Source: Acidobacteriota bacterium (GTDB lineage: Bacteria > Acidobacteriota > CAIWXX01). From it: a stretch of 64,000 bases of DNA. The notes below the pieces were generated by a model, which was given only the letters and a program-made list of their open reading frames with translations, was not told where the DNA came from and made no database searches. The stretch spans positions 1 to 64,000 of the forward strand of contig JBFMAF010000010.1 in assembly GCA_040755995.1 (NCBI GenBank). Direction: 5' to 3'. Of this stretch, positions 29,842-46,174 are shown piece by piece. Both the position numbers and the translations under genes were made by a program. Each line of letters begins with the position of its first letter. Positions within the stretch are counted from its first letter, which is position 1.

Positions 29842-31896
29842 CTACCCGCCGCCGCGGGACAGACGGAAGCTGCCGCGCTTGCCGTCGGAGGTGGTGAAGG
29901 TGCCGGCGATAGAATCGCCCTGGAGCACCCCGGTGAGCCTTGCCATCTTGAACGGCTTGTTCGCCGGAAATGTCAGCTCGATTCGAGGCTGGCCGCCCAG
30001 GACCAGGCTGCCGTGAACGCCCGGGATCGCCGGCGGCGACCAACGGATCCCCTGCGGCCTCACTTCCTCCACTGTGGCACTCCCGCTCAGGGCCATGCCC
30101 TTCTGATTCAGACTCAATCGCAGCCTCGGCGTCACATCGGTGCGCTCCGGGTAGAAGACGTTTTCGAGATTGCCTGTCCACAGCCCTTCGATCACGCCGA
30201 AGCTGTTGGGGATGGCCCAGGACGCCTGCTGGAACTGCTCGCGATCCGCCGGCGTGAGCGCCTGAACGTCGTCAACGCCGGGGCACCCGTTGCCTCCGTT
30301 GGCAATGTTGCTGTCGTAGAGTTTCTTGAGAATCGCCTGGCGCCCGGACCCCGCCTGCGGCGCCTGCCCTTTCCCAAACAGGCCCAGCACGTCGTTCAGC
30401 ACGATCACAATCCAGTGTGGGACCAGGGCGGCGACACCGTTGTACTGCGTGCGGGCCTTGACCATGTTCAGCACCGACGGGCTCCATCGCGTGATCTCTA
30501 CAGGTCGAAAAGTCGAGCCCGTCCCGAAGAGCGCCTGCGAGGCGCCGGAGTCGCGGATCTCGAATCGCGCCGTCGGATCTGTGTGGGCTTTTTCGAAGAC
30601 GCTCTTCAATCCGTTGATTGCGTCGAGGACCGGGCGCGGCGGGCCGGCTCCGGCAGCCGCAGCGGCGCCTTCGACATACAACGCAGTGCCGAGAGCATAA
30701 CGGATCTCCCACAGCTGTTCTGCCACATACTCCGCGGCGAAATCCATCGGGAAACAGGGCAGGTCGCGCGGGCGGACCTTGAGCATGCGCGAAGGCGCCA
30801 CCCACTCGCCGATCGCAACCTCAAGAGGCGCGTCGACTACTCCGCTGCGCGTGAGCACCGGCACGCGTACCTGGATCGACCCGGGTCCGGCAGTGATCAC
30901 CTGAGCCGGCATCTGCCCGATCCTGACCTGCACGCGGCTCGGGTCGCCACCGAGCCCAGTCCCCTGCAGCTCGATGACCTGGCCGACCGCGACTTCGGCC
31001 GGAGCAGAACGGATCAACGGCACCGTCTCGTACTGGATCGCCTGCTGCCAGACGACGACTCCCTTGCGCTCCACCCGCAACATGAACGACTGGACTCCGA
31101 TCTCGCCTATGTCCAGGTCCGGCACCGTCAGCTCGATGAACCCGTCTCCCATCTTGTCGATCTTGGCCTGCCGCTCCCGTACCCAGACCTTGAGCGTTTC
31201 CGACGGTTCGATCTCGGGCCCTCGCAGCGCCATGTTCCAGCCTGATTGCACCTTCGGCGGCTCGATTCGAACCGACTGCCACGGCTTCTGAGTGGCCTCA
31301 AGGCCCAGGACGAACCACAACCCGACGATCACGGCCAGAACCAGCACGGCGGCTGGAATCCAGACCACCGGCTGCTTCACGATGCCGATAGCCTTCGCGA
31401 TGGGGGCGGGCAGTTTCGAGCCGGCCTCATCGGCCGGTGCCTGGGCTTCAGCCGGTTCCTGCGCCTCCCCGACCGATTCACCGGCGGCCTGCGCCGGGGC
31501 AGGCGGCTCCGGCTCGGGCGGCCGCGCCGGCTTGTCAGACTCGGCAAGAGCCTCTAAGAGCCTCGAGCTCGGGTCCTCAAAGCTCAACATGATCGGGTTC
31601 TCACTCGTGGTCTGCCCCAGACGTATCAGGTCTCCGTCTTTCAGACAGACCCGGTCCTGCACGCGCACCTCGTTGACGTACGAACCGTTCGCGGTGTTTT
31701 GATCTTCCAGGTAGACGCCGGAGGCGTCACAGAGAATACGGGCGTGGAAGCGCGAGACGGAAGGATGCGAGACGACCAGAGGGTTGCCGGTCTGCCGACC
31801 GACCTTCCAGTCTTCCCCGGGCTCGATCTCCCGGCTGCCCAGGGCCTTTCCGTCCTGGAGGACAGTGAACCGCGGCTTGAGGCTCTCGCGCGTCAT
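29842..31896 (-). CDS. FHA - Pro/Ala linker - TM - IPT/TIG-like bitopic membrane protein (candidate SctD substitute)
   Basis: GRQ...SVSRFHA...ANGSYVN FHA; TM VVWIPAAVLVLAVIVGLWFVL; GQVIELQGTGL...VRIG...IQVRVP IPT-like. Confidence 0.8.
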   Translation of the reverse strand: MTRESLKPRFTVLQDGKALGSREIEPGEDWKVGRQTGNPLVVSHPSVSRFHARILCDASGVYLEDQNTANGSYVNEVRVQDRVCLKDGDLIRLGQTTSENPIMLSFEDPSSRLLEALAESDKPARPPEPEPPAPAQAAGESVGEAQEPAEAQAPADEAGSKLPAPIAKAIGIVKQPVVWIPAAVLVLAVIVGLWFVLGLEATQKPWQSVRIEPPKVQSGWNMALRGPEIEPSETLKVWVRERQAKIDKMGDGFIELTVPDLDIGEIGVQSFMLRVERKGVVVWQQAIQYETVPLIRSAPAEVAVGQVIELQGTGLGGDPSRVQVRIGQMPAQVITAGPGSIQVRVPVLTRSGVVDAPLEVAIGEWVAPSRMLKVRPRDLPCFPMDFAAEYVAEQLWEIRYALGTALYVEGAAAAAGAGPPRPVLDAINGLKSVFEKAHTDPTARFEIRDSGASQALFGTGSTFRPVEITRWSPSVLNMVKARTQYNGVAALVPHWIVIVLNDVLGLFGKGQAPQAGSGRQAILKKLYDSNIANGGNGCPGVDDVQALTPADREQFQQASWAIPNSFGVIEGLWTGNLENVFYPERTDVTPRLRLSLNQKGMALSGSATVEEVRPQGIRWSPPAIPGVHGSLVLGGQPRIELTFPANKPFKMARLTGVLQGDSIAGTFTTSDGKRGSFRLSRGGG

Positions 31897-32591
31897 GACA
31901 GAAGTACAATGACGAGGACCAGGATCCCGCCGAACAGCGTCGCGAGTCCGATGGCCTGAAACAGGACAGACCAGATCTGGTAGGAATCAATCGCGGGGAC
32001 CGTCTTGCCCGCCGGAGAGCTCGCGCGCACCTGCATGCCTGCGCGGAAGGCGGGTGGTGGAGCCACCGGGGCGCTTGCCCCGCTCGTGCTCACGCGGTGA
32101 TCGTCCACCTGCATGCTCGACGCGTTGTAGACGCCTGTCTGTATCTCCCACATCGTCGCCGGCTCGTTGGAGACGGGCTGTGCTGCACGGGCCGGGGGCG
32201 GTGCCGCCCGGGGCTCGGTCCGAGGGCTGGCCAGCTCCGCCGGTGCCTCTTCGATGATAGTCGGGGCCGCCGCCTCGATCACATCGGCTTCTTCCACCCA
32301 CTGCGCGCGCATCTCGATCGTGCCGATCTGAATCACATCGCCGCCCGTGAGCGCGTGCGGGACCCGCGGCGGCGCCTGTTGCCCGTTCACCAGGATGCCG
32401 TTGGTGCTCCCGAGGTCCTCCACAAACATCCGCGTTCCCTGGCGCAGGAACCGGCAGTGCCTGGATGAGACGAAATGAAACGGGAGCACCACGTCGTTCT
32501 GCTCCAGCCGCCCGATCGCGGCAATTTCCTTGGCGATCGTCACCGTCTGACGCTCGCCACCCGGCTTGCGTATCTCGATCTGAATCGACAC
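31893..32591 (-). CDS. FHA-domain protein with C-terminal membrane anchor
   Basis: IGR...VSSRHC...DLGSTNG...GDVIQIG; hydrophobic C-terminus. Confidence 0.88.
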   Translation of the reverse strand: MSIQIEIRKPGGERQTVTIAKEIAAIGRLEQNDVVLPFHFVSSRHCRFLRQGTRMFVEDLGSTNGILVNGQQAPPRVPHALTGGDVIQIGTIEMRAQWVEEADVIEAAAPTIIEEAPAELASPRTEPRAAPPPARAAQPVSNEPATMWEIQTGVYNASSMQVDDHRVSTSGASAPVAPPPAFRAGMQVRASSPAGKTVPAIDSYQIWSVLFQAIGLATLFGGILVLVIVLLS

Positions 32592-32602
32592 CGCCTATCC
32601 CC

Positions 32603-32628
32603 CTTCACATTTCATACTTCAAACTTCA
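32603..32628 (+). repeat. 7-mer tract (CTTCATA-like) x~4
   Basis: cttcaca tttcata cttcaaa cttca; reverse complement of the tract at 41829-41862. Confidence 0.8.
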
Positions 32629-34797
32629 GGCTCTACCGAATCCCGGCAGCGCGCCCGCCGTCGGCAGCAGAATTCGTCCGATTGGCTGGATGCGCAAGTC
32701 AGCCGGGAGCTCCTGGAACGAGAGGACCACCACGTTCGGGAACTCGAAGCTGATGAGGCGCTTGGTGAAGTAACGCACCTCCATCTGCGTCAGAACGACC
32801 GGCCGGATGGTGGTCATGTCGATCCTACCGAAGGCATTGCGAAAAGCCTGCAGGACCTGCTGGCTGACTTGCGGGTCGAGCGAGAGGTTGCTCCCCGCGG
32901 CCGATTGGCGGATTCCGGCCTGGATGGGCTGCTCGACAGCGGGATCCAGCAGGTAGACCGGCAACGTCGGGGCTCCATTGCTGAACTTATACGCGATGTA
33001 GCGTTTCAGGTTCATCCGGACGTACTCGGTGAGATACACCGGATCGTTCTCGTACGGAGCCCAATCAGCGAGCGCCTCGAGGACGGCCTTCATGTTCTTG
33101 ATGGTGATCTCCTCGCGGAGCAGGCGTCGCAGTATGTCGGTGAGCCGCTGGATGCTCAGCAGCTTGGGGACCACGTTCTTCACGAGTGCCGCGTAGCCCT
33201 GCTGTTCCATCGAATCGAGGATGTTCTGAACCTCCTGGATTCCCAGCAGCTCATCGGCATGGCGCTTGATGACCTGCGACAGGTGGACTGCGATGTACTC
33301 GTCAGGAGGCAGAGTGCGACCTCCGACACCCTGCGCCTGCTGTGCCTGCGCATCCGGAATCCAGATGCCCATCTTGCCCGTGATAGGGTGCGCGCCTTGC
33401 GGGCCGTCTATCCCGGCCATACGAACTTCTGTCAGCCCCTCCCCGACAAACACGCTGTCGGGATACGCAGTCCCCAGCGTCACAGGTACTTCGTTGATGT
33501 AGACGGCGTACTGGTTGTCGGGGATGTGCGCGGCGTCGCCGCGGATGCGTACCCCGGGAAATACGACGCCCATGTCGTGGAACAACCAGAGTCGCATCTG
33601 TGGCAGCAGCTCGCTGACGAAACGCTCTCCGCGAGCTTCGACGTCGAGATACGGGGTGACATTCACGCTGGTCTCCAGTATGACCGGCACCGTGACCGGC
33701 AATTGCATCTCGGTCGCCTGCTGCTTCTGCGCATCCCCCTGCTTCTCCATCATCTTGTTCTTGATGGCCTCCTTGTCCTTCGTCTTCTTGGTCTTCTGGA
33801 GGCTCCATGATGTAACCCCTGCGGCCACGGCGAGGAGAAGGAACGGGATGGTGGGCATGCCCGGGATCAGCGCCATGCCTCCCATCATGCCGGCCGCGAT
33901 CCCGATTGCTGTCGGCTGCGAGAGCAGTTGGACTCCGATATCCTGGCCCAACGTCCGTGGCTCCTCGCTCCCGGCCACGCGCGTCGTCAACACCGCCGAT
34001 GTGACCGTGATGATGAGAGATGGGATCTGCGCCACCAGACCCTCGCCGATGGTCAAGAGCGTGTACTTCTTCAGCGCCACCGCAAACGGGTACTTCTTGA
34101 TCACGATCCCGATGATCAGACCGGCGATGATGTTGATGGCCGAGATGATGATCCCGGCGATCGCGTCGCCCTTCACGAACTTCATGGCGCCGTCCATGGC
34201 GCCGTGGAAAGTAGATTCCTTTTCCAACAGCTTCCGCTTCGCGCGCGCCTGGTCGGCGTCCAACAGCCCGGCGCGCAGGTCCGCGTCGATGCTCATCTGC
34301 TTGCCCGGCATCGCGTCCAACGTGAACCGTGCCGAGACCTCCGACACGCGCTCGGCGCCCTTCGCGATCACGATCAGCTGCAGGAGCGTGATGATCAGGA
34401 AGATCACGAAGCCGACGATCAGGTTCCCCTTGACGACGAAGCTCCCGAACGCGTGGATGACCTCGCCGGCATCTGCGTACAACAGGATCAAGCGCGTCGC
34501 CGACACCTCCAGAGAGAGCCGGAACAGCGTCGAGACCAGAAGGATCGTGGGAAACGACGCCAGGGCCAGCGCCTCGGGGATGTACAGCGAGATCATGAGA
34601 AGCCCGATGGCCATCGCCATGTTGGCCGAAAGGAAGATGTCCATCAGGAAGGTAGGTATCGGGATGATCATGATCCCGATAATCGCAATGACCAGAAGCG
34701 CGAGCAGGATGTCGCTGTACCGTCCCAAGACGACGTTCAGCTCCCCCCTCCGCAGGTTGGCCCAGAGCTCCATCAACTGTTGCTTGATACCTTCCAT
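32626..34797 (-). CDS. sctV: T3SS export gate SctV (FlhA/LcrD family)
   Basis: FPTILL...GAERVSEVSARFTLDAMPGKQMSIDADL...GAMDGAMKFVKGDAIAG. Confidence 0.95.
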   Translation of the reverse strand: MEGIKQQLMELWANLRRGELNVVLGRYSDILLALLVIAIIGIMIIPIPTFLMDIFLSANMAMAIGLLMISLYIPEALALASFPTILLVSTLFRLSLEVSATRLILLYADAGEVIHAFGSFVVKGNLIVGFVIFLIITLLQLIVIAKGAERVSEVSARFTLDAMPGKQMSIDADLRAGLLDADQARAKRKLLEKESTFHGAMDGAMKFVKGDAIAGIIISAINIIAGLIIGIVIKKYPFAVALKKYTLLTIGEGLVAQIPSLIITVTSAVLTTRVAGSEEPRTLGQDIGVQLLSQPTAIGIAAGMMGGMALIPGMPTIPFLLLAVAAGVTSWSLQKTKKTKDKEAIKNKMMEKQGDAQKQQATEMQLPVTVPVILETSVNVTPYLDVEARGERFVSELLPQMRLWLFHDMGVVFPGVRIRGDAAHIPDNQYAVYINEVPVTLGTAYPDSVFVGEGLTEVRMAGIDGPQGAHPITGKMGIWIPDAQAQQAQGVGGRTLPPDEYIAVHLSQVIKRHADELLGIQEVQNILDSMEQQGYAALVKNVVPKLLSIQRLTDILRRLLREEITIKNMKAVLEALADWAPYENDPVYLTEYVRMNLKRYIAYKFSNGAPTLPVYLLDPAVEQPIQAGIRQSAAGSNLSLDPQVSQQVLQAFRNAFGRIDMTTIRPVVLTQMEVRYFTKRLISFEFPNVVVLSFQELPADLRIQPIGRILLPTAGALPGFGRA

Positions 34798-34808
34798 TTC
34801 AGTCTCCT

Positions 34809-34838
34809 AGACGGAAGACGGCGGACGGTAGACGGAAG
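34809..34838 (+). repeat. 7-mer tract (AGACGGA) x4
   Basis: agacgga agacggc ggacggt agacgga; reverse complement of 40275-40313. Confidence 0.8.
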
Positions 34839-34885
34839 AGGCACTGCCACCGTGTCTCTGCGTCTCCCCGTCTCCGCGATGTCCT

Positions 34886-34944
34886 CTCCCCGGTTCTCCG
34901 TTTCTCCGTTTCCCCGATTCTCCGGTTCTCCGATTCTCCGATTC
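34886..34944 (+). repeat. 8-mer tract (TTCTCCGN) x~7, preceded by related CGTCTCC units at 34851-34878
   Basis: ttctccgt ttctccgt ttccccga ttctccgg ttctccga ttctccga. Confidence 0.9.
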
Positions 34945-35012
34945 GGCTCTTTGCATGAACGATGCTACCCTGTGACCGCTCACTCTCCTGGCCGCAACAG
35001 CCATGCTGATCA

Positions 35013-36086
35013 TCACACGCCTCCGGGCACTCGCTGCGCCTCTTGGCGGAGCCGATAGGCGAACAGCAGGATCTCGGCCACCGCCTCGTACATGTCGCGC
35101 GGGATGTAACGTCCCATCTCGACCGTGAAGAGCGAGTGCGCCAGCTGGATGTCGCGGATGATGGGCACGTCGTGTTTCTTGGCGAGCTGGACGATGGTGG
35201 CGGCAAGCGTCCCGCCGCCCTTGGCGGTGACTTTGGGAGCGCCCATGGTGGCGCGATCGTATCGGACGGCGACGGCGAGATGAGTAGGGTTGGTGACCAC
35301 CGCGTCAGCCTTCGGAACTTCCTGCTGGATGTTCTGGAAGATCATGGCCTGCCCCAGCGCCTTCCGCTGTGCCTTGATCATCGGGTCGCCTTCGCTCTCC
35401 TTGTATTCCTGCTTGACCTCGTCTTTGCTCATCATGAGCTGCTTCTTCCACTGGTGCTTTTGCCAAAAGTAGTCGAAGCCGGCTACCGCCAGGAACAGGC
35501 CGCCGACCTGGAAGGTGAACGATCGCGCGATCTGAAAGCCGATTCGGTAGAACGCTCCCATGTCAGTCCAGTGCAGCCGCACGATCGTCTCCATGGCGTT
35601 CGCCAGCGCCTTGTAGCCTAGGTATAGCACCAGCACGACTTTGATCAGGGTTTTCAGGAATTCGACGATGCCCTTCCCGGAAAAAATCCTCTTCACGCCT
35701 TCGATCGGGTTGAGCTTCTTCAGCGACGGTTTCATCGGCTCGAACGTCAGGTTGAACCCTGCCTGCGCGGCGGCCAGCGCCAGGCCGGTTACGGCAATTC
35801 CTCCGATGATCGGCACGAAGCAGACGACGATCGCCATGAAAGCCTCTTGCAGCGGCAGCACCCAGATTGTCGCCGCGCTGGCGCCGTCGATGCGCACACC
35901 GGCCTGAATGGCGGTGTAATACAGGTTCCCGAATCGATCTCCGATGCGCGGCGCCCAGATCATGATAAGGGCCATGCCGGCGAGGAAGGTGAAGACGGCG
36001 GGGACCTCCTTGCTGAAGGCGATCTGCCCCTTCTTCTTGGCATCCGCCAGTTTCTTCGGAGTCGGTTGTTCGGTCTTCTCAGCCAT
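35013..36086 (-). CDS. sctU: T3SS switch protein SctU (FlhB family)
   Basis: EKTEQPTPKKL..AKKKGQ, KQEYKESEGDP, autocleavage motif NPTH. Confidence 0.95.
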   Translation of the reverse strand: MAEKTEQPTPKKLADAKKKGQIAFSKEVPAVFTFLAGMALIMIWAPRIGDRFGNLYYTAIQAGVRIDGASAATIWVLPLQEAFMAIVVCFVPIIGGIAVTGLALAAAQAGFNLTFEPMKPSLKKLNPIEGVKRIFSGKGIVEFLKTLIKVVLVLYLGYKALANAMETIVRLHWTDMGAFYRIGFQIARSFTFQVGGLFLAVAGFDYFWQKHQWKKQLMMSKDEVKQEYKESEGDPMIKAQRKALGQAMIFQNIQQEVPKADAVVTNPTHLAVAVRYDRATMGAPKVTAKGGGTLAATIVQLAKKHDVPIIRDIQLAHSLFTVEMGRYIPRDMYEAVAEILLFAYRLRQEAQRVPGGV

Positions 36087-36092
36087 GATGAT

Positions 36093-36127
36093 TCGGTGCT
36101 ATGCGCTCGGTTCGTGGTGCTCGGTGC
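36093..36127 (+). repeat. degenerate 7-mer tract (TCGGTGC) x5 filling the sctT-sctU spacer
   Basis: tcggtgc tatgcgc tcggttc gtggtgc tcggtgc. Confidence 0.7.
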
Positions 36128-36979
36128 TCATGGCACGGCTTCGCGAAGCCATTCGTTCATCCATACGTGGAACTGGCGCCAGAGGTCGGGCGTGATCTGC
36201 AGCATGGCGTAGATCGAGAGCGCCACGACCAGCAGCCCGACTATGGGCTTGAGCGCCATGCCCATGAAGAAAACGTCCATTTGCGGGGCCATGCGGTTGG
36301 CCACGCCCAGGATGACATCGGCGAGGATCAGCACGAGAATGGCGGGCGCGACGACTTTCAACATGATGCCGAACATGGAGCCGGTCATACGGATGAATGC
36401 ATCGTTGAGCACGGCGGTCTTGGGAAACAGACCGATGGGCGGGAACAGCTGGTAGCTGTCGATCACGGCCGAGAGGAACCAGAGGTGGCCGCCCACCAGG
36501 ACGTACAGAACCACGAACAGCTGAAAGTAGAAGTCGCCCAGGAGAGAGGTCTGGATCTGGAGCTGCGGCACCAACAGATTGGCCATCGTGGTGCCCCGAA
36601 CGCTGTCGAGGAACTGGCCGCCCATGTTGGCTGCAAAGAAGACGAGGCTCGAGCCGAAGCCGATGAGGAGGCCGATCGTGATCTCGTGGAATGCCGCGAT
36701 CCACCAGCCGATCGCGTTGAGGCCTAGCGGCACCGCGAGCTGATGGCTCAACCACGGTGTCGTGAACCACGCCATGACCATGGCGAGGCCCATCTTCACA
36801 GGGCCAGGCACGAGCTTCCCGCCGAGGAACGGGCAGAACTGCACGATGGCGGTCCAACGGATCAGCGCGAGGAACAGCAACACGGCCGTGTCAAGCGCCC
36901 CATGCCGGACACCCCACAGCGGCGCAAATGTCCGAAAAGCGCCGTCCAATGAGCCTGAATCCGGCAGCCAACTTGACAT
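36128..36979 (-). CDS. sctT: T3SS export apparatus SctT (FliR family)
   Basis: EITIGLLIG...GQFLD...GGHL...SY...AP...LGVANRMAPQMDVF. Confidence 0.93.
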   Translation of the reverse strand: MSSWLPDSGSLDGAFRTFAPLWGVRHGALDTAVLLFLALIRWTAIVQFCPFLGGKLVPGPVKMGLAMVMAWFTTPWLSHQLAVPLGLNAIGWWIAAFHEITIGLLIGFGSSLVFFAANMGGQFLDSVRGTTMANLLVPQLQIQTSLLGDFYFQLFVVLYVLVGGHLWFLSAVIDSYQLFPPIGLFPKTAVLNDAFIRMTGSMFGIMLKVVAPAILVLILADVILGVANRMAPQMDVFFMGMALKPIVGLLVVALSIYAMLQITPDLWRQFHVWMNEWLREAVP

Positions 36980-37109: not shown

Positions 37110-37376
37110 CTATCTGATCCAATGCGGGAATTCGGAGAAGATGACATAGGCCAGGCGAGATACGTGGCCGGCCATCCAGTAGCCCATCAGGTACAGCACG
37201 CCGAACACTGCGATCATTTTCGCAGCCATGCCGAGAGTCTGTTCCTGGATCTGTGTCAGCGCCTGGAAGATGGACAGGAGGAGACCCACGACGAGGGCCG
37301 CGAGGACAGCTGGAGCCGAGACGAGCACGGTCAGGATCAGCGCCTCGCGCGATACGTTAATGAATATGTTCTCCAT
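37110..37376 (-). CDS. sctS: T3SS export apparatus SctS (FliQ family)
   Basis: VGLLLSIFQALTQIQEQTL; 88 aa. Confidence 0.95.
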   Translation of the reverse strand: MENIFINVSREALILTVLVSAPAVLAALVVGLLLSIFQALTQIQEQTLGMAAKMIAVFGVLYLMGYWMAGHVSRLAYVIFSEFPHWIR

Positions 37377-37403: not shown

Positions 37404-38087
37404 TCACATGTAGCCCTGGATGAGCCCGCGTACGAGCAGGTCCCAACCATCTATCATGATGAACAGCAGGATCTTGAACGGCATCGAGACGGTTACGGGC
37501 GAGAGCATGTGCATGCCCATGGCCAGCAGGATGTTCGAGACAACCATGTCGATCACCAGGAACGGCAGGAAGATGAGGAATCCGATCATGAACGCCTCGG
37601 TCAGCTCGCTCACCGTGAACGCCGGTATCAGTACGAGCATGTCGTCGTCCTTCATCTCGGTCTTCCAGGATTCCGGGCCCATGCGAATCGCCATCTGGTA
37701 AAAGAGGCCTCGTTCCTTCGGGTGCGCGTGCTTGGACAGGAAAGCCCGCATCGGCTCGCGCGCCTTCTCCACCACGTCCAGTATCATTTTGGCCCCGCCC
37801 GGCGACACGATGTCCTGGCCCGATTGCTGCGTGAGCGTCGGCTGCAGCGTGTCGTAGACCTGCGAGCCGATCGGCGCCATCACGTAGATGGTCATGATCA
37901 CGGCGAGCCCCATGAGCACCGGCGTCGGCGGGACCTGCTGCGTACCCAGCGCGGTGCGGAGAATGGAGAGGACCACCGAGAACTTCACGAAAGACGTGGT
38001 CATCATCAGCAGGAATGGGGCCATGGAGAGCATGCTGACCATGATCAGCGTCGTTACGGGGTTGGCGGACCATGATCCGATGTTCAT
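37404..38087 (-). CDS. sctR: T3SS export apparatus SctR (FliP family)
   Basis: TSFVKFSVVLSILRTALGTQQVPP; IPAFTVSEL; PFLVIDMVV; PFKILLFIMIDGW; no FliP-type cleaved signal peptide evident. Confidence 0.96.
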   Translation of the reverse strand: MNIGSWSANPVTTLIMVSMLSMAPFLLMMTTSFVKFSVVLSILRTALGTQQVPPTPVLMGLAVIMTIYVMAPIGSQVYDTLQPTLTQQSGQDIVSPGGAKMILDVVEKAREPMRAFLSKHAHPKERGLFYQMAIRMGPESWKTEMKDDDMLVLIPAFTVSELTEAFMIGFLIFLPFLVIDMVVSNILLAMGMHMLSPVTVSMPFKILLFIMIDGWDLLVRGLIQGYM

Positions 38088-38422
38088 GCCTTGTCTGCTC
38101 CTTGATTTGATGCCCGACCCACCTCCTCGAGCGTGTGTTCGAACGAAGCGGAGCCCGGATCAGCTCGGGTGTGGAGCACCTGCACTCGATCCGGTGAGGT
38201 GGCGATGAGGAGGTGCGTGCGGTCCCAACGTACAACGTATAGCCGGTGGTTGCGATCCAACGGCAGGAACTCGTCGACCTGCAGGGTGCGAGGGCGCGAG
38301 GCCGCGCGATAGCGCATGAGCCATGGCAGGCCGAATCGAAGGGTGATGAAGGCGATGACGATGACAACGAGCAACGCGGCGAATCCGCGCAGCAGCAACC
38401 AGGCTTCCTGCGATGCATCCAT
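38084..38422 (-). CDS. FliO-like export-gate assembly factor
   Basis: single N-terminal TM then LQVDEFLPLDRNHRLYVV...LLIA; overlaps sctR start. Confidence 0.75.
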   Translation of the reverse strand: MDASQEAWLLLRGFAALLVVIVIAFITLRFGLPWLMRYRAASRPRTLQVDEFLPLDRNHRLYVVRWDRTHLLIATSPDRVQVLHTRADPGSASFEHTLEEVGRASNQGADKA

Positions 38423-38533: not shown

Positions 38534-38830
38534 TCATGTGGACGCGCTCTCCTTGAACTGCGTCAAGATCCGCAGGATCTCGACGCCGAGCTTCTCGTGC
38601 ACGAGGACCACTCGCCCTTCGGCCAACACCCGCCGCTGCAGTCCGGTCTCTGCAACCAGCTTCACCAGGTCGTCGGCGCCGCGCTGCAAGGTGAGCACCT
38701 GGCCGACCTGCCACTTCTTCAGGTCGCCGAGGGTGACGGGAACGCGGTCCAATTCGATGGCGATCTGCAGTTCGAGGTCCTGGACTGGAACGGACTCAAG
38801 TTCGCCGGTCGGAGCATCTTTCTCAGCCAT
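38534..38830 (-). CDS. internally initiated SctQ-C (FliN-like, 98 aa)
   Basis: GGAGGTGA Shine-Dalgarno (38838-38845) 7 nt before the in-frame ATG of MAEKDAP..., exactly ahead of the SpoA domain. Confidence 0.75.
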   Translation of the reverse strand: MAEKDAPTGELESVPVQDLELQIAIELDRVPVTLGDLKKWQVGQVLTLQRGADDLVKLVAETGLQRRVLAEGRVVLVHEKLGVEILRILTQFKESAST

Positions 38831-40021
38831 GACCCAGTCACCTCCCGGTGTATGTACCCACAGTTTCTCGAGCGACAGTTTAAGACTACCTTGCTCCCTG
38901 CGCAATCCGCCCGTGTGCCAGAATCGTGCGAGCCGGAGGTAGGCCGACCCGAGCACGCCGTCCTGTACGTCACCTGGGCGCCAGGCGGCGGGCAGCCAGA
39001 CGTCAGGAAGCAGAACGTCGCCGACTTCGATCCGAGCCCAGTCCGAGACCTTCAGCCGGATGAGGCCGGCCCACACCGAGGCAGGCCAGATGAGATCGTC
39101 GAGATCGAGGTCGGCCGCCGCCTGCGGCTCGATGACTGGACACAGGATCGTGGTGGCGAGCTCGGTGGCCTGGCGGCTCAGCCAGACACTTGCCAGGAGA
39201 TACGCCGCGTGTCGCAGCTCTTCCGGGGCTTCGCCGGGTGCGATCCACCCGGCGATCTGGACCGGCTGCTGCAGCTTGTCGCTCAACAAGTTGGCAATCT
39301 GGAGGAGCACGAACTGCGCGATGCCTTCTTCCATCGCACTCGTCTCCCACGGCTCGTCCGGCTTGATTTCCGTTATGTGCTGCCAACATGCGCGCATCCA
39401 CACGGACGGGACTCGCACCCACACCGTGTGAGCGCCGCATTGAACCCTCGCCCACCGATCGGACGGGTTCGCGAGCTCACGGAGGGGCGACTTGAAGCGA
39501 GCCGGCTGCAGGCCCGAGGCTCGCACCCGGATCGCCTCGGGCTCGGTCGACGCGTGGGTCTGCTCGATCAGCGTCAACGTGTAAGGCGGGATCTCGATCC
39601 GATCACCGCCGTGCAGCGGCACCGGCGTGAGGGGCTCCAGCTTCTGTCCGTTGCGCCTGGTGCCGTTGGTGCTCTTCAGGTCCATGAGGCAGGCGAGCCC
39701 TCGGTCCATCTGGATCTCAGCGTGCTCAGACGAGACCGTCGGGCCGGGCAGCTGCAAGTGGCATGATTCTCCGCGCCCGATCCGAAAGGGGAAGTACCGT
39801 ACATCCAGATCCCGTTCCCCACCCCGGCGGTCTTTCAGCCGGAGACGCAAGATCACGTCGCCGTGGGAAACGAACGGCCACCACGCTGCCATGGCCTCGG
39901 GCAGCGCTGCACTCACCCGCGCGGCCCAGGGGCGCAGGCTCCGGACCGTGGCATCCACCTTCACCTGCTGCCCAATCTCGGCCGGGTCCACCTCCGGAAG
40001 CCCAATGGCCCAGGACGACAT
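38534..40021 (-). CDS. sctQ: FHA-fused SctQ (C-ring/sorting platform, C-terminal SpoA/FliN domain); start uncertain (40021 or 40078)
   Basis: FHA IGRGESC...VSSEHAEI...DLKSTNG; SpoA-like LKVSDWARIEVGDVL and VTLGDLKKWQVGQVL...AEGRVV...KLGVEILRI; sctP-sctQ-sctR synteny. Confidence 0.88.
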   Translation of the reverse strand: MSSWAIGLPEVDPAEIGQQVKVDATVRSLRPWAARVSAALPEAMAAWWPFVSHGDVILRLRLKDRRGGERDLDVRYFPFRIGRGESCHLQLPGPTVSSEHAEIQMDRGLACLMDLKSTNGTRRNGQKLEPLTPVPLHGGDRIEIPPYTLTLIEQTHASTEPEAIRVRASGLQPARFKSPLRELANPSDRWARVQCGAHTVWVRVPSVWMRACWQHITEIKPDEPWETSAMEEGIAQFVLLQIANLLSDKLQQPVQIAGWIAPGEAPEELRHAAYLLASVWLSRQATELATTILCPVIEPQAAADLDLDDLIWPASVWAGLIRLKVSDWARIEVGDVLLPDVWLPAAWRPGDVQDGVLGSAYLRLARFWHTGGLRREQGSLKLSLEKLWVHTPGGDWVMAEKDAPTGELESVPVQDLELQIAIELDRVPVTLGDLKKWQVGQVLTLQRGADDLVKLVAETGLQRRVLAEGRVVLVHEKLGVEILRILTQFKESAST

Positions 40022-40136
40022 CCCACCGTATGTGCCGGGCTGCACCGTGTCGGATCTCACGCATCGAGTCTCGTCCATCGGGTCACATCCTGTGCGGGGT
40101 GCGGCATCGGTCGATGTAGCACGCAAGGCCGCTTTC

Positions 40137-40184
40137 GCCGCGCCTCGCGCAGAGAGTGGAAAGTAGAGAGTAGAGAGTGGAAAG
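40137..40184 (+). repeat. GC-rich motif + (TRGARAG) x5 tract
   Basis: gccgcgcctcgcg cagagag tggaaag tagagag tagagag tggaaag. Confidence 0.85.
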
Positions 40185-40274
40185 CGTGCCCCTGCGCGAT
40201 CGCGATCGGCGTGGCGCTGCATGAGCGAGGGCGCCCGCATGACCCACTGCTCCGAAAACTTGACTCAATCGCAA

Positions 40275-40313
40275 CGTCTTCCCTCTCCCGTCTTCCGTCT
40301 CCCGTCTCCCGTC
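40275..40313 (+). repeat. 7-mer tract (CGTCTYC) x~5.5
   Basis: cgtcttc cctctcc cgtcttc cgtctcc cgtctcc cgtc. Confidence 0.85.
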
Positions 40314-41249
40314 CTACTTCTGACTTATCTCCTCGATTATCTCTTCCTGTTTTCTCTTGCGTTCCTGTTCCTGCTGCTGCTCCGATCCGCGTTTCTGATC
40401 CAGCTGAGGCTGCCCCGATGACTGGCTCTGGGTCACGACACCCTGCGAGCCGCCTGCCGGGAATTGCGCGTCGCGAGGCGCCTGGGGTTGGATGACGACT
40501 TCGGACGGGCTCACTCGCAGCCGCTCGGCCTGCTGGGCATCCGGCGGCGGCTGCCACTTGAACTCGGATAGATCCGGCGCGCGCACCGTCAACTGCTGCA
40601 GATTCAGACCGCGGGCCTCCAGCCGGCTCGTGAGCTCGCTCATGTGGGTCTTGAGGAGGTCCTGCGCGTCGACAGTCTGCGTCTTGAAGTCGACCTTCAG
40701 CTGCCCGTCGGCGGCGCGATGCAGCTCGACGCTCATGTTCCCGAGCGCCCCCATGTTCAGCTCCATGTGAACCTCGGTCGATCCGCCTGCATTCATGCGG
40801 ACCTGCACCGCATCCACGATCTGGTTCGCTATTCGCTGGATCTGTGCGACGGCATCGGTGGTGCTCAGGCCGGCGGCCGCCTTGACCTCGATCTGTTGCA
40901 TCGCGGCCTGGAAGCTGAACGGGATCATCATGTCGCCCGGCACTGGGCGGCGGTGCAGGGCCTCCTGCTGCGAAGACTGCCCCGAGCCGCCTCGTCCTTC
41001 GCCCTCGCCCGACTGCTCTCCCTCGCGCCGCTCATGACGGCGTTCTACACCGTGCTCGGTCGCCCGGGCTGTTTCGGGCTTGTCTCCACTGCCTGTCGCC
41101 TTGGCCTCGCCCTTCCCCGTCCCTTCTCCGGCGTCCGCCTTCCTGTCCATCACCCGGTCGAACTCGGCCTCACCCCCTTTGTCCACCTCGGCGGCCGTCT
41201 CAGGTGGGGGTGTCGGCGCCATTGGTCCCGTGCTGTCCACCTTAGTCAT
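40314..41249 (-). CDS. sctP: SctP/FliK-like length-control protein
   Basis: disordered N-terminus; FliK_C-like EVHMELNMGALGNMSVEL...LKVDF...ELTSRLEARGL; position after sctO. Confidence 0.75.
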   Translation of the reverse strand: MTKVDSTGPMAPTPPPETAAEVDKGGEAEFDRVMDRKADAGEGTGKGEAKATGSGDKPETARATEHGVERRHERREGEQSGEGEGRGGSGQSSQQEALHRRPVPGDMMIPFSFQAAMQQIEVKAAAGLSTTDAVAQIQRIANQIVDAVQVRMNAGGSTEVHMELNMGALGNMSVELHRAADGQLKVDFKTQTVDAQDLLKTHMSELTSRLEARGLNLQQLTVRAPDLSEFKWQPPPDAQQAERLRVSPSEVVIQPQAPRDAQFPAGGSQGVVTQSQSSGQPQLDQKRGSEQQQEQERKRKQEEIIEEISQK

Positions 41250-41254
41250 GGACC

Positions 41255-41310
41255 TTCTCCGTTTCTCCGGTTCTCCGATTCCCCGGCTCTCCGTTTCTCC
41301 GATTCTCCCC
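41255..41310 (+). repeat. 8-mer tract (TTCTCCGN) x7 filling the sctO-sctP spacer
   Basis: ttctccgt ttctccgg ttctccga ttccccgg ctctccgt ttctccga ttctcccc. Confidence 0.92.
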
Positions 41311-41312
41311 CG

Positions 41313-41828
41313 CTACTCGCCTTCCTCTTCGGCGGTCTCAGCCCTGTCCCTCACGAATCGCGCGAGGGCAATCTCCTCTCCAAGCTTCTGCTCCTTCTGC
41401 TGCATCTCCAACTTCCACTCGTTGAACCACTTCTCCCGGTGCTTCTCGATCGCCTTGAGAGCCTTGTCCGCCTCGATCAGCTCGCTCTTCCTCTCTTCCA
41501 CTTTCTGCTCCGCCTGCTGCACCACCTGCTTCTGAGCCTCGATCGCAGCGTCGTTCTCCTTGATGGCGTAATCGATGTGTTGGATGCCGTTCTTCCGCTG
41601 CTCTACCGCCGGAATCGACAGCATCCCCTTCTCGTCAGGATCGTACAGGTGCGCAACTCGATCGGCTCGCGTCTCCAGCAGCGTCTGTCGTTTCGTCTCG
41701 AGTTCCTTGAGCTTCTGCTGTTCCCGCTGCACCTCTTGCATCGCCTGCGCGAGCGCCTTCTTCGCGCTCTCCTTGGCGCGACCGCGCTGGTCCAGCACCG
41801 TTTGAAGCGGATATTTCGGAGGTTTCAT
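41313..41828 (-). CDS. sctO: SctO/FliJ-like stalk protein
   Basis: KYPLQTVL..R start, all coiled coil, KAIEKHREKW...EQK..EEIA; directly after sctN. Confidence 0.85.
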   Translation of the reverse strand: MKPPKYPLQTVLDQRGRAKESAKKALAQAMQEVQREQQKLKELETKRQTLLETRADRVAHLYDPDEKGMLSIPAVEQRKNGIQHIDYAIKENDAAIEAQKQVVQQAEQKVEERKSELIEADKALKAIEKHREKWFNEWKLEMQQKEQKLGEEIALARFVRDRAETAEEEGE

Positions 41829-41862
41829 ATAAAGTATGAAGTGTGAAGTATGAAGTATGAAG
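41829..41862 (+). repeat. 7-mer tract (TATGAAG) x~5 abutting the sctO start codon
   Basis: ataaag tatgaag tgtgaag tatgaag tatgaag. Confidence 0.88.
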
Positions 41863-41914
41863 CAGGTAGTCGGTAGCCCGGAATCAAGTTGATCTCTGAG
41901 ATTCGCGGGAGCAT

Positions 41915-43261
41915 CTACTTCAGGCCTCCGACCACCTTCATCCGCTCGATCGTCTCCTGGAAGTCGTCCTTCTCGTTAGTGCTCTGCTTCAGAAACCCCT
42001 CGACATCACGAATTCGATCGATGGCCTCGTCGACGCGCGCGTCGGAGCCGCGCTTGTAAGCCCCCAGCAAGACGAGGTCGCGGTTCTTCTCGTAGTTGGC
42101 GATGAGCTCGCGCGTCTTCTGCGCGGCCTTGAGATGATCCTGGGTTGCGACCGCGGTCATCACGCGGCTGGCGCTGCGCAGCACGTCGATCGCGGGGAAA
42201 TGGCCGCGCGCCGAGAGCTCGCGCGACAGAATCAGGTGGCCGTCCAGAATCGAGCGGACCTCGTCGGCCACCGGCTCAGTCATGTCGTCGCCCTCGACGA
42301 GCACGGTGTAGAAGGCGGTGATCGAGCCCTTCTGCGAGTTGCCGGCGCGCTCCAGAAGCTTCGGCAGCGTCGCGAAGACCGACGGCGGGAACCCCGCGCG
42401 GGCCGGAGGCTCTCCGATGGCGAGCCCCACCTCGCGTTGCGACCGCGCGAAGCGCGTCACCGAGTCCATCATCAGGATCACCTTCTTCCCCTGATCTCGG
42501 AAGTACTCCGCGACGGCCGTGGCCACGTAGGCGGATTTCAAGCGAACAAGCGATGGCTGGTCGGACGTGGCGACGACGGTCACCGATCTGGCCATGCCCT
42601 CCTCACCCAGGGATTCCTCGATGAAATCCATTACCTCGCGACCGCGCTCGCCGATCAGGGCGATCACGTTCACGTCTGCCACGGTGTTGCGTGCCAGCAT
42701 GCCGAGCAGCGTCGATTTGCCGCCGCCGGCGGCTGCGAAGACACCCATGCGCTGCCCTTCGCCGATCGTCAAGAGAGAATCGATCACGCGGACTCCGACA
42801 GGGAACGGGCTCAGGACGCGTTTCCGCTTCATCGGATCCGGCGGCGGTGCGTAGATCGGGTATTCGACGGTGTTGGTGACGTCTATCGGACCCTTGCCGT
42901 CGAACGGCTCGCCCAATCCGTTCAGCACGCGCCCCAGCAGCGACGCGCCGACTCGCACCGTCATCACGTTGCCCGTCGGCCTGACCTCGCTGTCGGGGCC
43001 GATTCCGGTGAGCTCGCCCAGGGCCATGAGATAGACAAGATCGTTCTTGAAGCCGACGACCTCGGCGCGAACGGGTTGGTCGCGCAACGGGGTCTCGATG
43101 TAGCACAGCTCGCCCATGCGCACTCCCGGTACGCGGGCCTTGATGACAAGGCCCGTCACCTCGACAACCCGGCCCCGGACCTCGATCGGAGTGACCTCGT
43201 CGATCAGTTGGAGGTATGGGGTAAGGTCGAGGTCAACCACGCCCTGCTGTGTTTCAATCAT
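41915..43261 (-). CDS. sctN: T3SS ATPase SctN
   Basis: [53 protein letters not shown]. Confidence 0.96.
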
Positions 43262-43524
43262 GAGCACGCCTCCAACCCATTATCACCGATCGCCGCCCGG
43301 ATGTTGCCTGTGCGGGGCCCGAGAAACGGTGACGTGGCTCTGGGATGGTGAACGCAGGCAGAGTCATAACCGCCGGACCCTCCAGGCCCAGGTTCACGTC
43401 TACGCCCGGCAGACACTCGTGCGTCCTCCGGCCGTCTGCACCACTCCCTCATACCAGATTCTTTTCTGCCCTTCTTCAGTTGTCAATGAAACCCGCCAGG
43501 ATGGCGCCCCCGATGCGGATTGGA

Positions 43525-44175
43525 TCAAGGGGTAGACGATTCGGCCTCCCCAAGCAGGTGTCGCTCCATCACCCGGATCTGCGTCTCGATTGTCGTGTCG
43601 ACCATCCCGAATTCCGTCTCGATGCGGCAGCCGCCTCGCTGTAGCGTGTCGTCGGGGACGATGTCCAGGCTGCCGAGGAACGGATTGCGCTCCAGCCACT
43701 TCTGGCGGCGCGCTTCCAGGATCTCTTTGTCCTGCGGGTGGACGCGCAGAATGATCCGCATCTGCTGCTGCCCGCGGAGTGATCGGATCGCCTCGTCGAC
43801 CATCCCTACCAGCAGCTCAGGCGAAGCCTCCAGCTTCTGGCGCACGATCTTCTCAGCGACGCGTATAGCCAATCGGATGACCTGTGGTTTGGCCTGTTCC
43901 ACCAATCCCTTCATCCCCTCCTGCACGCGTTGGATCTGCGCGAGCCATTCGGCCATGCCCTTCTCGTAGCCGGCCTGGCGGCCTTCCTGCAGGGTCTTGT
44001 CGCGGACCTCCTGGGCGGACAGCAGGATCTGATCTGCCTGGGCCTTGGCGGCCTCGATGATTCGTCTCGCCCGATCGGCCGCCTCGATGACCTCGCGGTC
44101 GATGATCTTGCCGGGTGCTGGAAGAGGTGATGCGGATTCGGGTTCGTCCGTTGGTCTCTTGATGATCTTGGTCAT
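43525..44175 (-). CDS. sctL: SctL/FliH-like stator
   Basis: EGRQAGYEKG, LAIRVAEKIV, LRVHPQD, DDTLQRGGCRIETEFG.VD. Confidence 0.92.
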   Translation of the reverse strand: MTKIIKRPTDEPESASPLPAPGKIIDREVIEAADRARRIIEAAKAQADQILLSAQEVRDKTLQEGRQAGYEKGMAEWLAQIQRVQEGMKGLVEQAKPQVIRLAIRVAEKIVRQKLEASPELLVGMVDEAIRSLRGQQQMRIILRVHPQDKEILEARRQKWLERNPFLGSLDIVPDDTLQRGGCRIETEFGMVDTTIETQIRVMERHLLGEAESSTP

Positions 44176-45152
44176 TTGGATTGCTCGTCATCCGCGAGCG
44201 CCACACGGATCTGTCCCGTCTGGTTCAGCTCCTGTAGCGTCTCACGCAATCTCTGTATCCACTCGTCGATAGAGGGCTGCACCGGCGTCGAGAGCCATTC
44301 GGGGTGGCCGGCCAGTGCATCGAGCGCAAACTGTCCTACGCTGCGCGGCAGGCGGTAGGCAAGGCGCCTCAGGTGGAGTCCCTGCCCACGCATCAGACCG
44401 CATCGCAGCCAATCGGCCACGGCCATTCGAGTAACGCGTTTCGCGAGGCTGGGATAGGATTTCTCCAGCTCCTTGTAAACGACCGGCCAGAACGGATCGT
44501 CCAACCACTTCTTGCTCTGGATGATTGCAGTGGCGATCGTCTGGAGCTCCGCGGGCAGTTGCCACATGAGCTGCTGCGCCTCGGATCGAGGGAGTTTGCG
44601 GATGCAGCTCACCAGGCCCGCCGTGCCATGGAGGCGGAGTACCGCGGCGAGCTCGGCATCGCTCATCTCGCAAAGGCTGCCCGGCAAGTCTGCGTCGCTG
44701 TGAGTCTTCTCCGCCGGCGGGAGGTCGGGGTAGCCGAGCCGCCGTTTGACATAGTTCGACAGCCAGATAGTCCACCATCTCGGCATCACGCCCTCGATGA
44801 TCTTCGTCTTCCCGGCGGGCGGCAGGCGTCTCTTCAACCTCTCGCGCGAATCGCCCGGCAAGCATTCCAGTGCCCACAAGCGCCACTGCGCAGGCCACTC
44901 CTGCATCAGATGGCCGATCCACGTGGGGTGGATGAGCGACCACGGAATGGTCATGGCCTTCATCGTGAGAACACGCAGCAGCTGTTTCTGAGCCTCTGGG
45001 GGCAACCCGCATAGGTGCTCGGCCATCCTTCGGACCTGCTCGGGATTCGCCTCGTCGCCGGGCGAGGCGCCGGGCAGGCGCGGCAGCACGGCCCCCTGGC
45101 TGGATTTGAGTGCCGCATACGTGAACGACAGGTGGGTCAGCGGGCTGTACAT
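44172..45152 (-). CDS. hypothetical protein in SctK position (between sctJ and sctL)
   Basis: IHPTWI motif, helical composition; stop overlaps sctL start; start set at MYSPL because the longer ORF only translates the repeat tract. Confidence 0.6.
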   Translation of the reverse strand: MYSPLTHLSFTYAALKSSQGAVLPRLPGASPGDEANPEQVRRMAEHLCGLPPEAQKQLLRVLTMKAMTIPWSLIHPTWIGHLMQEWPAQWRLWALECLPGDSRERLKRRLPPAGKTKIIEGVMPRWWTIWLSNYVKRRLGYPDLPPAEKTHSDADLPGSLCEMSDAELAAVLRLHGTAGLVSCIRKLPRSEAQQLMWQLPAELQTIATAIIQSKKWLDDPFWPVVYKELEKSYPSLAKRVTRMAVADWLRCGLMRGQGLHLRRLAYRLPRSVGQFALDALAGHPEWLSTPVQPSIDEWIQRLRETLQELNQTGQIRVALADDEQSK

Positions 45153-45166
45153 CGGGCCCCTAGCAA

Positions 45167-45225
45167 GCCGCGGCCTCGCGCGGAGAAGAGTAGAGAGTGG
45201 GGAGTGGAGAGTGGAGAGTGGACAG
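45167..45225 (+). repeat. GC-rich motif + (TGGAGAG) x~6 tract
   Basis: gccgcggcctcgcgcgg agaagag tagagag tggggag tggagag tggagag tggacag. Confidence 0.85.
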
Positions 45226-45352
45226 CTACCGGTACGCACCCCGGTTTGGTATCGTTATGACGCACCGCGGCAGAATCGTGACTCACTTGAAACATCGCTG
45301 ACGCGAGTCCGCGCCCGCTGCTCACCTTCGCCTCAGTCATCGCGGCCGGCTG

Positions 45353-46174
45353 CTACGCGCGGGGCTGCCGTTGCACGGACTGGAGCTGCCGCTGAGCCAT
45401 GGCGTGTTCGTAGCGGATCTGGCTCAGGACGCGCCCCTGCCAGAAGAGCAGCCCGCCCATCAGCAGCAGCAGGAGGACGAAGATGGCCGTGATTATCTTC
45501 AGCGTGATCATGGATGTGCGGGCCACCATCAGGGGGCCGAATGCCACGAAGTCCTGGAAGCCTTGGGAAGGGGCCATCTGGATGGGCTTCATCACGACGC
45601 TGACGCTTTCCGGCTTCAGGCCGGAGACGCCGTTGCCCACGATCTTCTGCACCTCGTCCTGCCGGATCGGAGTCTGCCCGGCGGAGTCGGGCCGGTACTC
45701 GATCATCACCGACGCCTTCGCCTCGCCCCTGATCTGCCCGGTGATGTCTTCTTCAGGAAGTACGACGTGGACGCGGGCTGCGATTACGCCGGTGACCGCC
45801 TCGAGCGTGTGGGAGAGCTCTCCCTGCAGGGCTTCGAGGTACAGGGCCTTCTCTTCGATCGGCGCGACGACCAGCTTGCTCTTGCCGAAAACGTCCTGGA
45901 ATCGCCGCCCTGGTGATGTCGGCAGCCGGTACTCCTGCAGAACGCCCCACACCTTGACTGTGTCTCGTCGCGGCACGACGACACGCCACGTGTTGTTCTC
46001 GGCGTTCTCGATCTCCTTGGTCGCGACGACACCCTGCTCCTGCAGCACCGCGATCACGCGATTGGCCTCCGTCTCGGAGACGTCGTGCAGGACGGCCGAA
46101 TTGCATCCGGCAAGGAACAGAAGCGAAACGCACAGCAGCGCCAGCAGCTGGGATTTGATTGCCTTCTCTTGCAT
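45353..46174 (-). CDS. sctJ: T3SS inner-ring lipoprotein SctJ
   Basis: lipobox LAGC, SETEANRVIAVL, ELSHTL...GVIAARVHVVLP, AKASV, GLKPESVSVV, C-terminal TM. Confidence 0.94.
   Translation of the reverse strand: MQEKAIKSQLLALLCVSLLFLAGCNSAVLHDVSETEANRVIAVLQEQGVVATKEIENAENNTWRVVVPRRDTVKVWGVLQEYRLPTSPGRRFQDVFGKSKLVVAPIEEKALYLEALQGELSHTLEAVTGVIAARVHVVLPEEDITGQIRGEAKASVMIEYRPDSAGQTPIRQDEVQKIVGNGVSGLKPESVSVVMKPIQMAPSQGFQDFVAFGPLMVARTSMITLKIITAIFVLLLLLMGGLLFWQGRVLSQIRYEHAMAQRQLQSVQRQPRA

Follow-up and report, generated by a model that had tools for sequence, protein, structure and literature searches.

What would a secretion system of type III (T3SS) with neither a needle nor a secretin be built from, and what would it do? 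This question is raised by a gene cluster of an Acidobacteriota bacterium (GenBank assembly GCA_040755995.1), which lies within the first 64,000 nucleotides of contig JBFMAF010000010.1; this whole stretch is referred to as the window. An earlier note, made from the letters of the window only, had described there a secretin-less, needle-less and FHA-rich system akin to those of myxobacteria. Analysis of the complete genome (G000, 7.7 Mb, 99.84% complete; C-numbers denote its contigs, and other G-numbers denote comparison genomes) moderately favours a modified reading, namely an acidobacterial non-flagellar T3SS of its own lineage, split over two loci, filament-forming, secretin-less and aimed at bacteria. 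That the system is non-flagellar and secretin-less is close to certain, and the remaining parts of this reading are graded below.

The cluster consists of fifteen minus-strand genes in a single run, from the sctJ start codon (ATG) at 46174 down to a stop codon at 29842, in the order sctJ-K-L-N-O-P-Q-fliO-R-S-T-U-V followed by two FHA genes, as the earlier note had it. Its members were assigned as flagellar or non-flagellar by comparing bit scores with NCBIfam cut-offs. Five pass non-flagellar cut-offs: the stator SctL (43525..44175; TIGR02499, 99.3 bits vs 78.7), the ATPase SctN (41915..43261; TIGR02546, 629.7 vs 604.75), SctR (37404..38087; TIGR01102, 237.1 vs 208.6), SctS (37110..37376; PF01313; TIGR01403, 77.7 vs 76.5) and the export gate protein SctV (32626..34797; TIGR01399, 775.6 vs 692.25). 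The flagellar counterparts fall short, with FlhA at 650.1 (cut-off 772.1) for SctV, the FliP model below its cut-off for SctR, and the FliI clade models below theirs for SctN, which is present in one copy in the genome. The inner-membrane ring lipoprotein SctJ (45353..46174; 273 aa, with a lipobox and a C-terminal transmembrane (TM) segment; PF01514, E 2.9e-22) is not a FliF, the FliF model scoring 42.8 bits and TIGR02544 153.2, the latter below its cut-off of 161.95. SctT (36128..36979; PF01311, E 6.1e-52) and the switch protein SctU (35013..36086; PF01312, E 5.9e-110) score slightly higher on flagellar than on non-flagellar models, with FliR and SctT models both below cut-off for the former, and FlhB and SctU models both just below for the latter. 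FliF, FliG, FliE, FlgB/C/E, MotA, FliL, FliN and flagellin were not found in the genome, with positive controls for the flagellin family; nine of 12 flagellar queries had no match, and the other three matched OmpA-type, SRP-GTPase and sigma genes.

Phylogenetic trees agree with this assignment. SctV, SctN and SctR cluster with non-flagellar systems (support 100), with no nesting of SctN or SctV in flagellar FliI or FlhA. In the SctV trees (117 rows in FastTree and 44 in a quick IQ-TREE C20 run, with group labels of the analyst's own), the gene falls into its own clade (support 100), which a second acidobacterial clade, the myxobacterial long-locus clade and the secretin-bearing clade join in a polytomy. 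A tree from a six-gene matrix (41 rows and 2033 columns, nine rows being less than half filled) places all secretin-less systems together weakly (81), with the G000 lineage apart. In neither the SctV trees nor the six-gene tree is that lineage nested in the myxobacterial long-locus clade. In an approximately unbiased (AU) test, its placement as sister of the secretin-bearing systems was not rejected (p 0.59), the tree with this sister placement scoring 3.5 log units higher. The system is therefore an early, distinct lineage outside the secretin-bearing clade, with an ambiguous sister group, in line with the early-branching position and myxobacterial kinship suggested before.

The host is an acidobacterium, as previously supposed. 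Among the 120 SctV matches listed, 61 clusters have 51-81% identity, and in this tier all seven labelled ones, among them a genome of the same family, belong to Acidobacteriota or Thermoanaerobaculia, while in the next tier (47-50%) all eight labels are Myxococcota or Deltaproteobacteria. Gene order and sequence are conserved across families (SctV 72-81%). Two panels were surveyed within the phylum: non-flagellar SctV is present in eight of 61 genomes, and 20 of 301 have a match to SctR at E 1e-60, a part of these 20 being covered by the tree check, which extends the range of non-flagellar T3SSs to ~7% of sampled Acidobacteriota genomes. Neither an acidobacterial non-flagellar T3SS nor an SctF in myxobacteria is reported in the literature searched, subscription papers and supplements lying outside that scope.

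The secretin-less character extends from the window to the genome, which encodes seven secretins, one PilQ and six GspD-like. None is an SctC, the best SctC score among them being 151 bits vs a cut-off of 238, and none adjoins T3SS genes. A secretin is likewise absent from 29 acidobacterial and myxobacterial T3SS loci, several of which in this neighbourhood survey end at contig edges (control loci were positive in 5 of 10), and from nine further loci. The GspD-like secretins were considered as dedicated T3SS partners and rejected, their occurrence not following the T3SS: the type is present in 52 of the 61 phylum genomes irrespective of T3SS, and a search at E 1e-60 did not find it in the T3SS-positive G018 and G035. 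Four near-identical orphan cassettes (on C29, C24, C16 and C51; 70-80% identity), each encoding a lipoprotein, a 160-aa protein and a TPR-secretin-cohesin protein, represent a family-specific secretin expansion.

By contrast to the secretin, the rod and a needle-like subunit are present. Genes for a secretin, needle, rod, gatekeeper or translocon are absent from the window, as noted earlier; in G002, a genome of the same family, eight extra genes precede sctJ, and their orthologues in G000 are located on contig C25 (14116-18808). They encode Y114 (114 aa), a FliA/WhiG-like sigma factor, X303, a SycD-type TPR chaperone, E91, F84 (84 aa), G132 and the rod protein SctI, with 46-69% identity to G002 for I, G, F, the E-like protein, SycD and sigma. 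Genes of this type adjoin sctJ directly in both genomes of the same family; G001 has X-SycD-E-F-G-I-J-K-L-N-O-P in a single run, and G026 has Y-sigma-F-G-I-J-K-L. The Yersinia-type order yscE-F-G-(H)-I-J-K-L is the same as that in G001 and G026. Since relatives carry the C25 genes before sctJ, the window contains the larger part of a locus that is divided between sctI and sctJ. SctI passes its cut-off (TIGR02497, 24.5 vs 23.45; PF17001, E 7.7e-6), and the 132-aa TPR protein G132 matches HrpB1, SctY and CdsG models. X303 (303 aa) is Gly/Met-rich with a needle-like C-terminus, which is the sole match in a PF09392 search of the genome (E 0.077); four of 10 long X-type proteins, and likewise a fifth protein, match PF09392 below cut-off. 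E91 (91 aa) is assigned as an SctE-type chaperone by position alone, and neither it nor Y114 matches a Pfam family.

Y114 (C25:18464-18808; L123:12465-12809) is small and helical with a disordered N-terminus, and always adjoins the FliA-like sigma gene in acidobacterial and myxobacterial loci; it could be an exported anti-sigma factor like FlgM. A lone X303 paralogue is encoded on C44 (40320-41039; L124), with a sigma-28-like motif 72 bases upstream, and faces the gene for an FHA-bearing regulator.

Several lines of evidence identify F84 as a likely filament-forming subunit of the SctF family. A first family profile, built from eight sequences, all acidobacterial, finds the myxobacterial F-like genes with E values of 1.7e-11 to 1e-5 (small database). 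It yielded 278 representatives, of which 149 entered an alignment with F84; among the resulting 150 sequences, 13 match needle_F, HrpF or HrpA models, and none matches SctI. A 53-row profile of the family (A3) has a sole match in the PDB, to the 43-residue chain F of 7y6c, a needle/co-chaperone entry (E 0.023); we take this chain to be the needle peptide, the entry file labelling it co-chaperone. Among five genomes with secretin-type systems, A3 has three matches in two genomes and none in the other three. Two of the matches are SctF genes that exceed the Pfam threshold (46.7 and 45.6 bits vs 29.4) in sctD-E-F order, and the third is a 215-aa protein beside the gatekeeper with a needle-like C-terminus, presumably Bsp22. 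In the ESM Atlas, F84 matches with a cosine of 0.94 and 207 of 256 features; 24 of its 30 matches lie in PF09392-bearing clusters, and the top cluster is 48% PF09392. A complex model of G132 with F84, which places F84 residues 61-84 in the TPR groove, has an ipSAE of 0.72 vs 0.01 for the best control, with at least 81% of contacts common to the runs and a partner pLDDT of at least 55. The mark used was reached by 116 of 157 solved pairs and two of 215 mismatched ones, and the model may have passed through likeness to solved needle-chaperone complexes.

The distribution of the family follows that of the T3SS, with the qualification that A3 contains rows from several of the counted genomes, at least one of them myxobacterial, and that kin genomes are counted, so that the counts are not independent; G025 served merely as a background row in these tallies. 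A3 matches in exactly the eight of 61 genomes with non-flagellar SctV, and in 19 of the 20 SctR-positive vs four of the 281 other phylum genomes, the SctR-positive genome without a match being G287; in G008 it finds the long paralogue only. Among 31 myxobacterial genomes, it matches the same 22 as SctI, which are the T3SS-positive ones, and none of the other nine. An SctF needle with SctG/SctE chaperones is indicated here by remote homology, synteny, reciprocal profile matches and the complex model, while curated cut-offs are missed. The earlier claim that the system is needle-less and rod-less probably does not hold for the genome, and the label ‘needle-less’ is perhaps wrong for the whole group as well. 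If the assignment is correct, the F84 family is a divergent SctF family below standard model cut-offs.

Flagellar relationships are seen among the remaining core genes. The protein at the sctK position (44172..45158) has no Pfam match itself; its orthologues in G001, G002 and G026 are 36-45% identical, and its counterparts in G056 and in a myxobacterium match FliG_M (E 4.7e-4) and FliG_C (E 1.5e-7), a relation absent from the earlier note. The stalk protein SctO (41313..41828; PF16789, E 1.5e-24) also passes the FliJ cut-off, and SctP (40314..41249; PF02120, E 3.7e-12; PF09483, E 4.5e-5) is a FliK-type length ruler or substrate switch. The retained fliO-like gene (38084..38422) passes PF04347 (30.9 bits vs 22) and has counterparts at the same position in myxobacterial long loci; FliO in Myxococcota T3SSs has been reported before (bioRxiv 10.1101/2025.05.06.652439).

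FHA modules are located at three positions. The C-ring protein SctQ (38534..40078, with 40078 the likely and 40240 a possible start) carries, in one frame, an N-terminal FHA domain (E 7.9e-19) fused to FliMN_C (E 1.6e-11), a feature the earlier note had missed. The fusion also occurs in G056 and G018, which have both the other acidobacterial SctQ proteins scanned, and no FHA domain was found on the one myxobacterial SctQ tested. Acidobacterial systems with other gene orders (L199-L202 and L207, in G187, G287 and G108) have SctQ proteins without an FHA match. Downstream of sctV lie a 232-aa FHA protein with a C-terminal TM anchor (31893..32591; FHA E 1.4e-18, TM at about residue 213) and a 684-aa bitopic protein (29842..31896; FHA and TIG matches, TM at about residue 180), both of which keep this place in G002, G008 and G026. 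The 684-aa protein has the topology of SctD and 13 further full-length homologues. In an AlphaFold2 (AF2) model of residues 205-684 (pLDDT 88.8), its periplasmic part comprises two IPT domains, an alpha/beta part and an avidin-like barrel (structure matches: IPT, Z 13.1, root-mean-square deviation (rmsd) 1.4 over 81 residues; barrel, Z 12.3, rmsd 2.5 over 105), with no SctD-type ring-building domains. In a PF16693 profile search of the genome for SctD, the positive control was silent.

The closest known systems are those of Archangium and related myxobacteria, which have two locus types. The long locus has the order F-like, G, Y, sigma, I, J, K, L, N, O, P, Q, fliO, R, S, T, U, U', x, SycD, ..., V, FHA, and fits MXAN_2434-2464 of M. 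xanthus by gene count alone, sctQ being the eighth gene of the 14-gene core; PMC10196010 gives MXAN_2445 as sctQ. The G000 system and this long locus, presumably that of the M. xanthus T3SS*, share the order from sctI to sctU with a later sctV, the lack of a secretin, SycD-type (LcrH-type) chaperones, an FHA gene beside sctV, a common promoter motif, and a needle-like gene, TPR chaperone, small helical protein and FliA-like sigma gene preceding sctI, with SctV 46-48% identical. They differ in that G000 falls into a clade of its own in both trees, fuses FHA to SctQ, has the FHA-TM-IPT-barrel protein in place of a double-FHA ‘SctD’, and lacks both a stand-alone SctU C-terminal gene and detectable Tad/Kil genes. 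The myxobacterial F-like proteins encoded before G (182-201 aa) are longer than classical needles. One long locus (L137:3897-6453, in G081) contains three near-identical 72-aa needle-like genes, each with a motif copy, followed by a gene for a 372-aa DUF1521 protein. The short locus (F-like, I, J, x, Q, R, S, T, U, V) corresponds to M. xanthus T3SS(2), MXAN_5643-5654; like the G000 type it is secretin-less, with an SctF-like gene before sctI-sctJ, whereas it has no ATPase gene (in two loci read), an SctV 40-42% identical and a distinct clade.

With secretin-bearing injectisomes (Chlamydia, Desulfovibrio, Ysc-type), the G000 system shares the E-F-G needle block (D-E-F-G in the Bilophila locus), SctI, SctJ, the export gate, the ATPase complex, SctP and SycD-type chaperones, and X303 resembles their Bsp22-like proteins in its needle-like C-terminus. 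Unlike them, it has no SctC and no recognisable SctD ring domains, SctW or SctE, and it has retained FliO together with a FliG-like K and a FliA-like sigma factor. FliO, FliG-like, FliM/N-like, FliJ-like, FliK-like and FliA-like parts are common to it and the flagellar T3SS, from which it differs in its non-flagellar SctV, SctN and SctR and in the lack of detectable flagellar structural genes.

A sigma-28-like motif, HAAC-N16/17-CGATAA, lies upstream of 17 of 27 genes or operons of the needle family, but of none of 33 core genes (0.16% in shuffles), and four of six regions added later carry it. In G000 it precedes X303 and the C44 paralogue; a weak copy also lies at 43278-43308 of the window, 16 bases 5' of the sctN start. 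A genome-wide matrix scan, which was noisy (244 sites above 13 bits), led to five LysM-led genes (C20:162528-165062, C21:41174-43266, C8:156369-157202, C26:103832-104701 and C50:11649-13400), whose products lack a signal peptide and have disordered N-termini and variable C-termini, making them candidate T3SS substrates. Two encode a papain-like domain and have a conserved 145-aa neighbour, one of them also a lipoprotein; full-length relatives of this protease-type family, which has no PDB relative, occur in the T3SS-positive G026 and G056. A profile of the LysM N-terminal region has weak matches in four of 53 T3SS-negative genomes, and its match in G018 was discarded as an ordinary multi-LysM protein. 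In G008, a LysM-GH108 muramidase gene lies beside that for the lysozyme inhibitor LprI, an antibacterial effector-immunity layout. An antibacterial role, suggested by these candidate substrates, is plausible, with about as much to be said on either side. The shared motif would provide a handle for finding substrates if the SctF-like genes prove genuine.

The following mechanism may be proposed. By homology, the window locus supplies the export gate (SctR, S, T, U and V, plus FliO), the SctJ ring, and the ATPase and sorting platform (SctN, L and O, the FliG-like K and FHA-SctQ). C25 would add the SctI rod and, from homology and the complex model, F84 as a needle-type subunit held by its TPR chaperone, while X303 with the SycD-type chaperone may act in the manner of Bsp22, as a tip or as an extension of the filament. 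The locus-encoded FliA-like sigma factor would control the filament genes as a late class, as the motif suggests. Given the lack of SctC and the apparent lack of SctD ring domains, the filament would grow into the periplasm, and passage through the outer membrane, if any, would use a secretin borrowed in trans or another route. The FHA modules on SctQ and on the two membrane proteins could gate assembly through phosphothreonine signalling, as expected from general FHA-domain behaviour; in M. xanthus, the FHA protein KilD is essential (PMC10433427). The likely cargo would be the signal-peptide-less LysM-led proteins, presumably attacking the cell walls of other bacteria.

A number of results count against this reading. 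F84 itself matches neither PF09392 nor TIGR02105, AF2 models it as no more than two paired helices (pLDDT 64.6, pTM 0.27), and searching by fold gave no useful information, with no Foldseek match and only generic helices, no needles, in a wide search (best Z 7.3); the 8-sequence profile also has no PDB match. The C-terminal helix is common to needle, rod and tip proteins, and the exact role of F84 is therefore not fixed. The promoter motif was refined on part of the counted sites, does not lie directly before F84, and is not enriched across the genome (spacers 16 and 17 have 11 and 10 sites, other spacers 2-15); in relaxed form it precedes only two of the five LysM-led genes. No member of the protease-type family was found in G001, G002, G018 or G035, and the T3SS-negative G041 holds a partial match to it. 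SctW (PF07201) and SctE (PF04888) were found in none of four genomes, with a positive Achromobacter control, although very divergent forms could escape, and no route across the outer membrane was identified.

Some of these results suit an exporter that ends in the periplasm, with F84 serving as a short adaptor or an additional rod, and cargo leaving the cell's own periplasm through a type II system or outer-membrane vesicles. SctC, SctE and SctW were not found, six GspD-like secretins are at hand, and a periplasmic immunity protein such as LprI beside a muramidase suits periplasmic passage; in addition, an injectisome secretin mutant still exports its needle subunit into the periplasm, as stated by Abby and Rocha (PMC3459982). 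A separate SctI is already there, however, and the SctG-type chaperone, the SctP ruler, the needle-tipped paralogues and the triplicated 72-aa gene of G081 suggest a longer polymer made in quantity, leaving this alternative a serious one of rather low probability. It is improbable that the system is truly needle-less, as described for M. xanthus T3SS*, and partnered with a Tad/Kil pilus. Gene order and parts are as in the myxobacterial long locus, F84 stays below every curated needle cut-off, and G002 has an RcpC gene (one of two positives among five genomes tested), but the needle evidence for F84 as a whole speaks against it, RcpC was not found in G000, G008 and G056, and no Flp pilin was found in G000, so that the Tad/Kil partnership that could be expected from M. 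xanthus, where it serves prey lysis, is not borne out.

Slightly less probable again is a conventional injectisome for eukaryotic hosts with scattered genes, one of the six GspD-like secretins acting as its dedicated SctC. The locus is indeed split, the four orphan cassettes offer candidates, secretins have been recruited several times (PMC3459982), and the AU test is compatible with a sister relation to secretin-bearing systems. This secretin type is nevertheless found regardless of T3SS, is missing from two T3SS-positive genomes and never adjoins T3SS genes; SctD ring domains, SctE and SctW were not found, and the candidate cargo has peptidoglycan-binding domains. Missing parts do lie elsewhere in the genome, as regards the rod and needle-like genes, but no sctC and no canonical translocon are among them. 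Finally, a decaying relic, to which the two pieces of the locus might point, is hardly credible, as all 15 + 8 reading frames are intact, order and sequence are conserved across families, and the G+C content (0.60-0.65) is the same as that of the flanks.

The best reading of the secretin-less, filament-forming system is that it is close to the ancestral state proposed by Abby and Rocha (PMC3459982), who describe an ancestral injectisome with SctF and no secretin, and myxobacterial systems as having no secretin and as having lost SctF. More tentatively, and with somewhat more doubt than conviction, the secretin-less T3SSs of both phyla may all possess a divergent SctF and be living ancestral-type injectisomes, with a needle, a sigma-28 late regulon and no secretin, the filament delivering LysM-led toxins into bacteria and the lineage maybe being sister of all secretin-bearing injectisomes. 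If the SctF-like genes hold, the ancestral needle-bearing, secretin-less state survives in two phyla, and the question can be tested by M. xanthus genetics with the candidate genes named. The M. xanthus T3SS* is called needle-less in PMC10433427 and PMC12075869, where delivery of unidentified effectors is posed as a question.

A few further features of the genome and window may be mentioned. On C16 (87784-89999; L177), a site that nearly equals the C20 LysM gene's promoter is followed by a radical-SAM gene and by genes for a repeat-bearing peptide of 113 aa, a helical protein of 90 aa and a TPR protein resembling SycD; the set may stand for a modified peptide that leaves through the T3SS. Within the window, a gene at 54038-55765, 8 kb from sctJ, encodes an FHA-FHA-TM-SLT lytic transglycosylase; it was rejected as a T3SS part, its homologues in G001, G002, G008 and G026 lying off the T3SS contigs. 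An integrase-bearing island (1583-23220) between two tRNA genes (3348-3421 and 23653-23729) encodes, with labels assigned by eye, NACHT/FGE-sulfatase-like and TIR-like proteins and a DISARM-type methyltransferase-helicase set, in which the methyltransferase is split over two overlapping frames (11146-13344 and 9248-11227).

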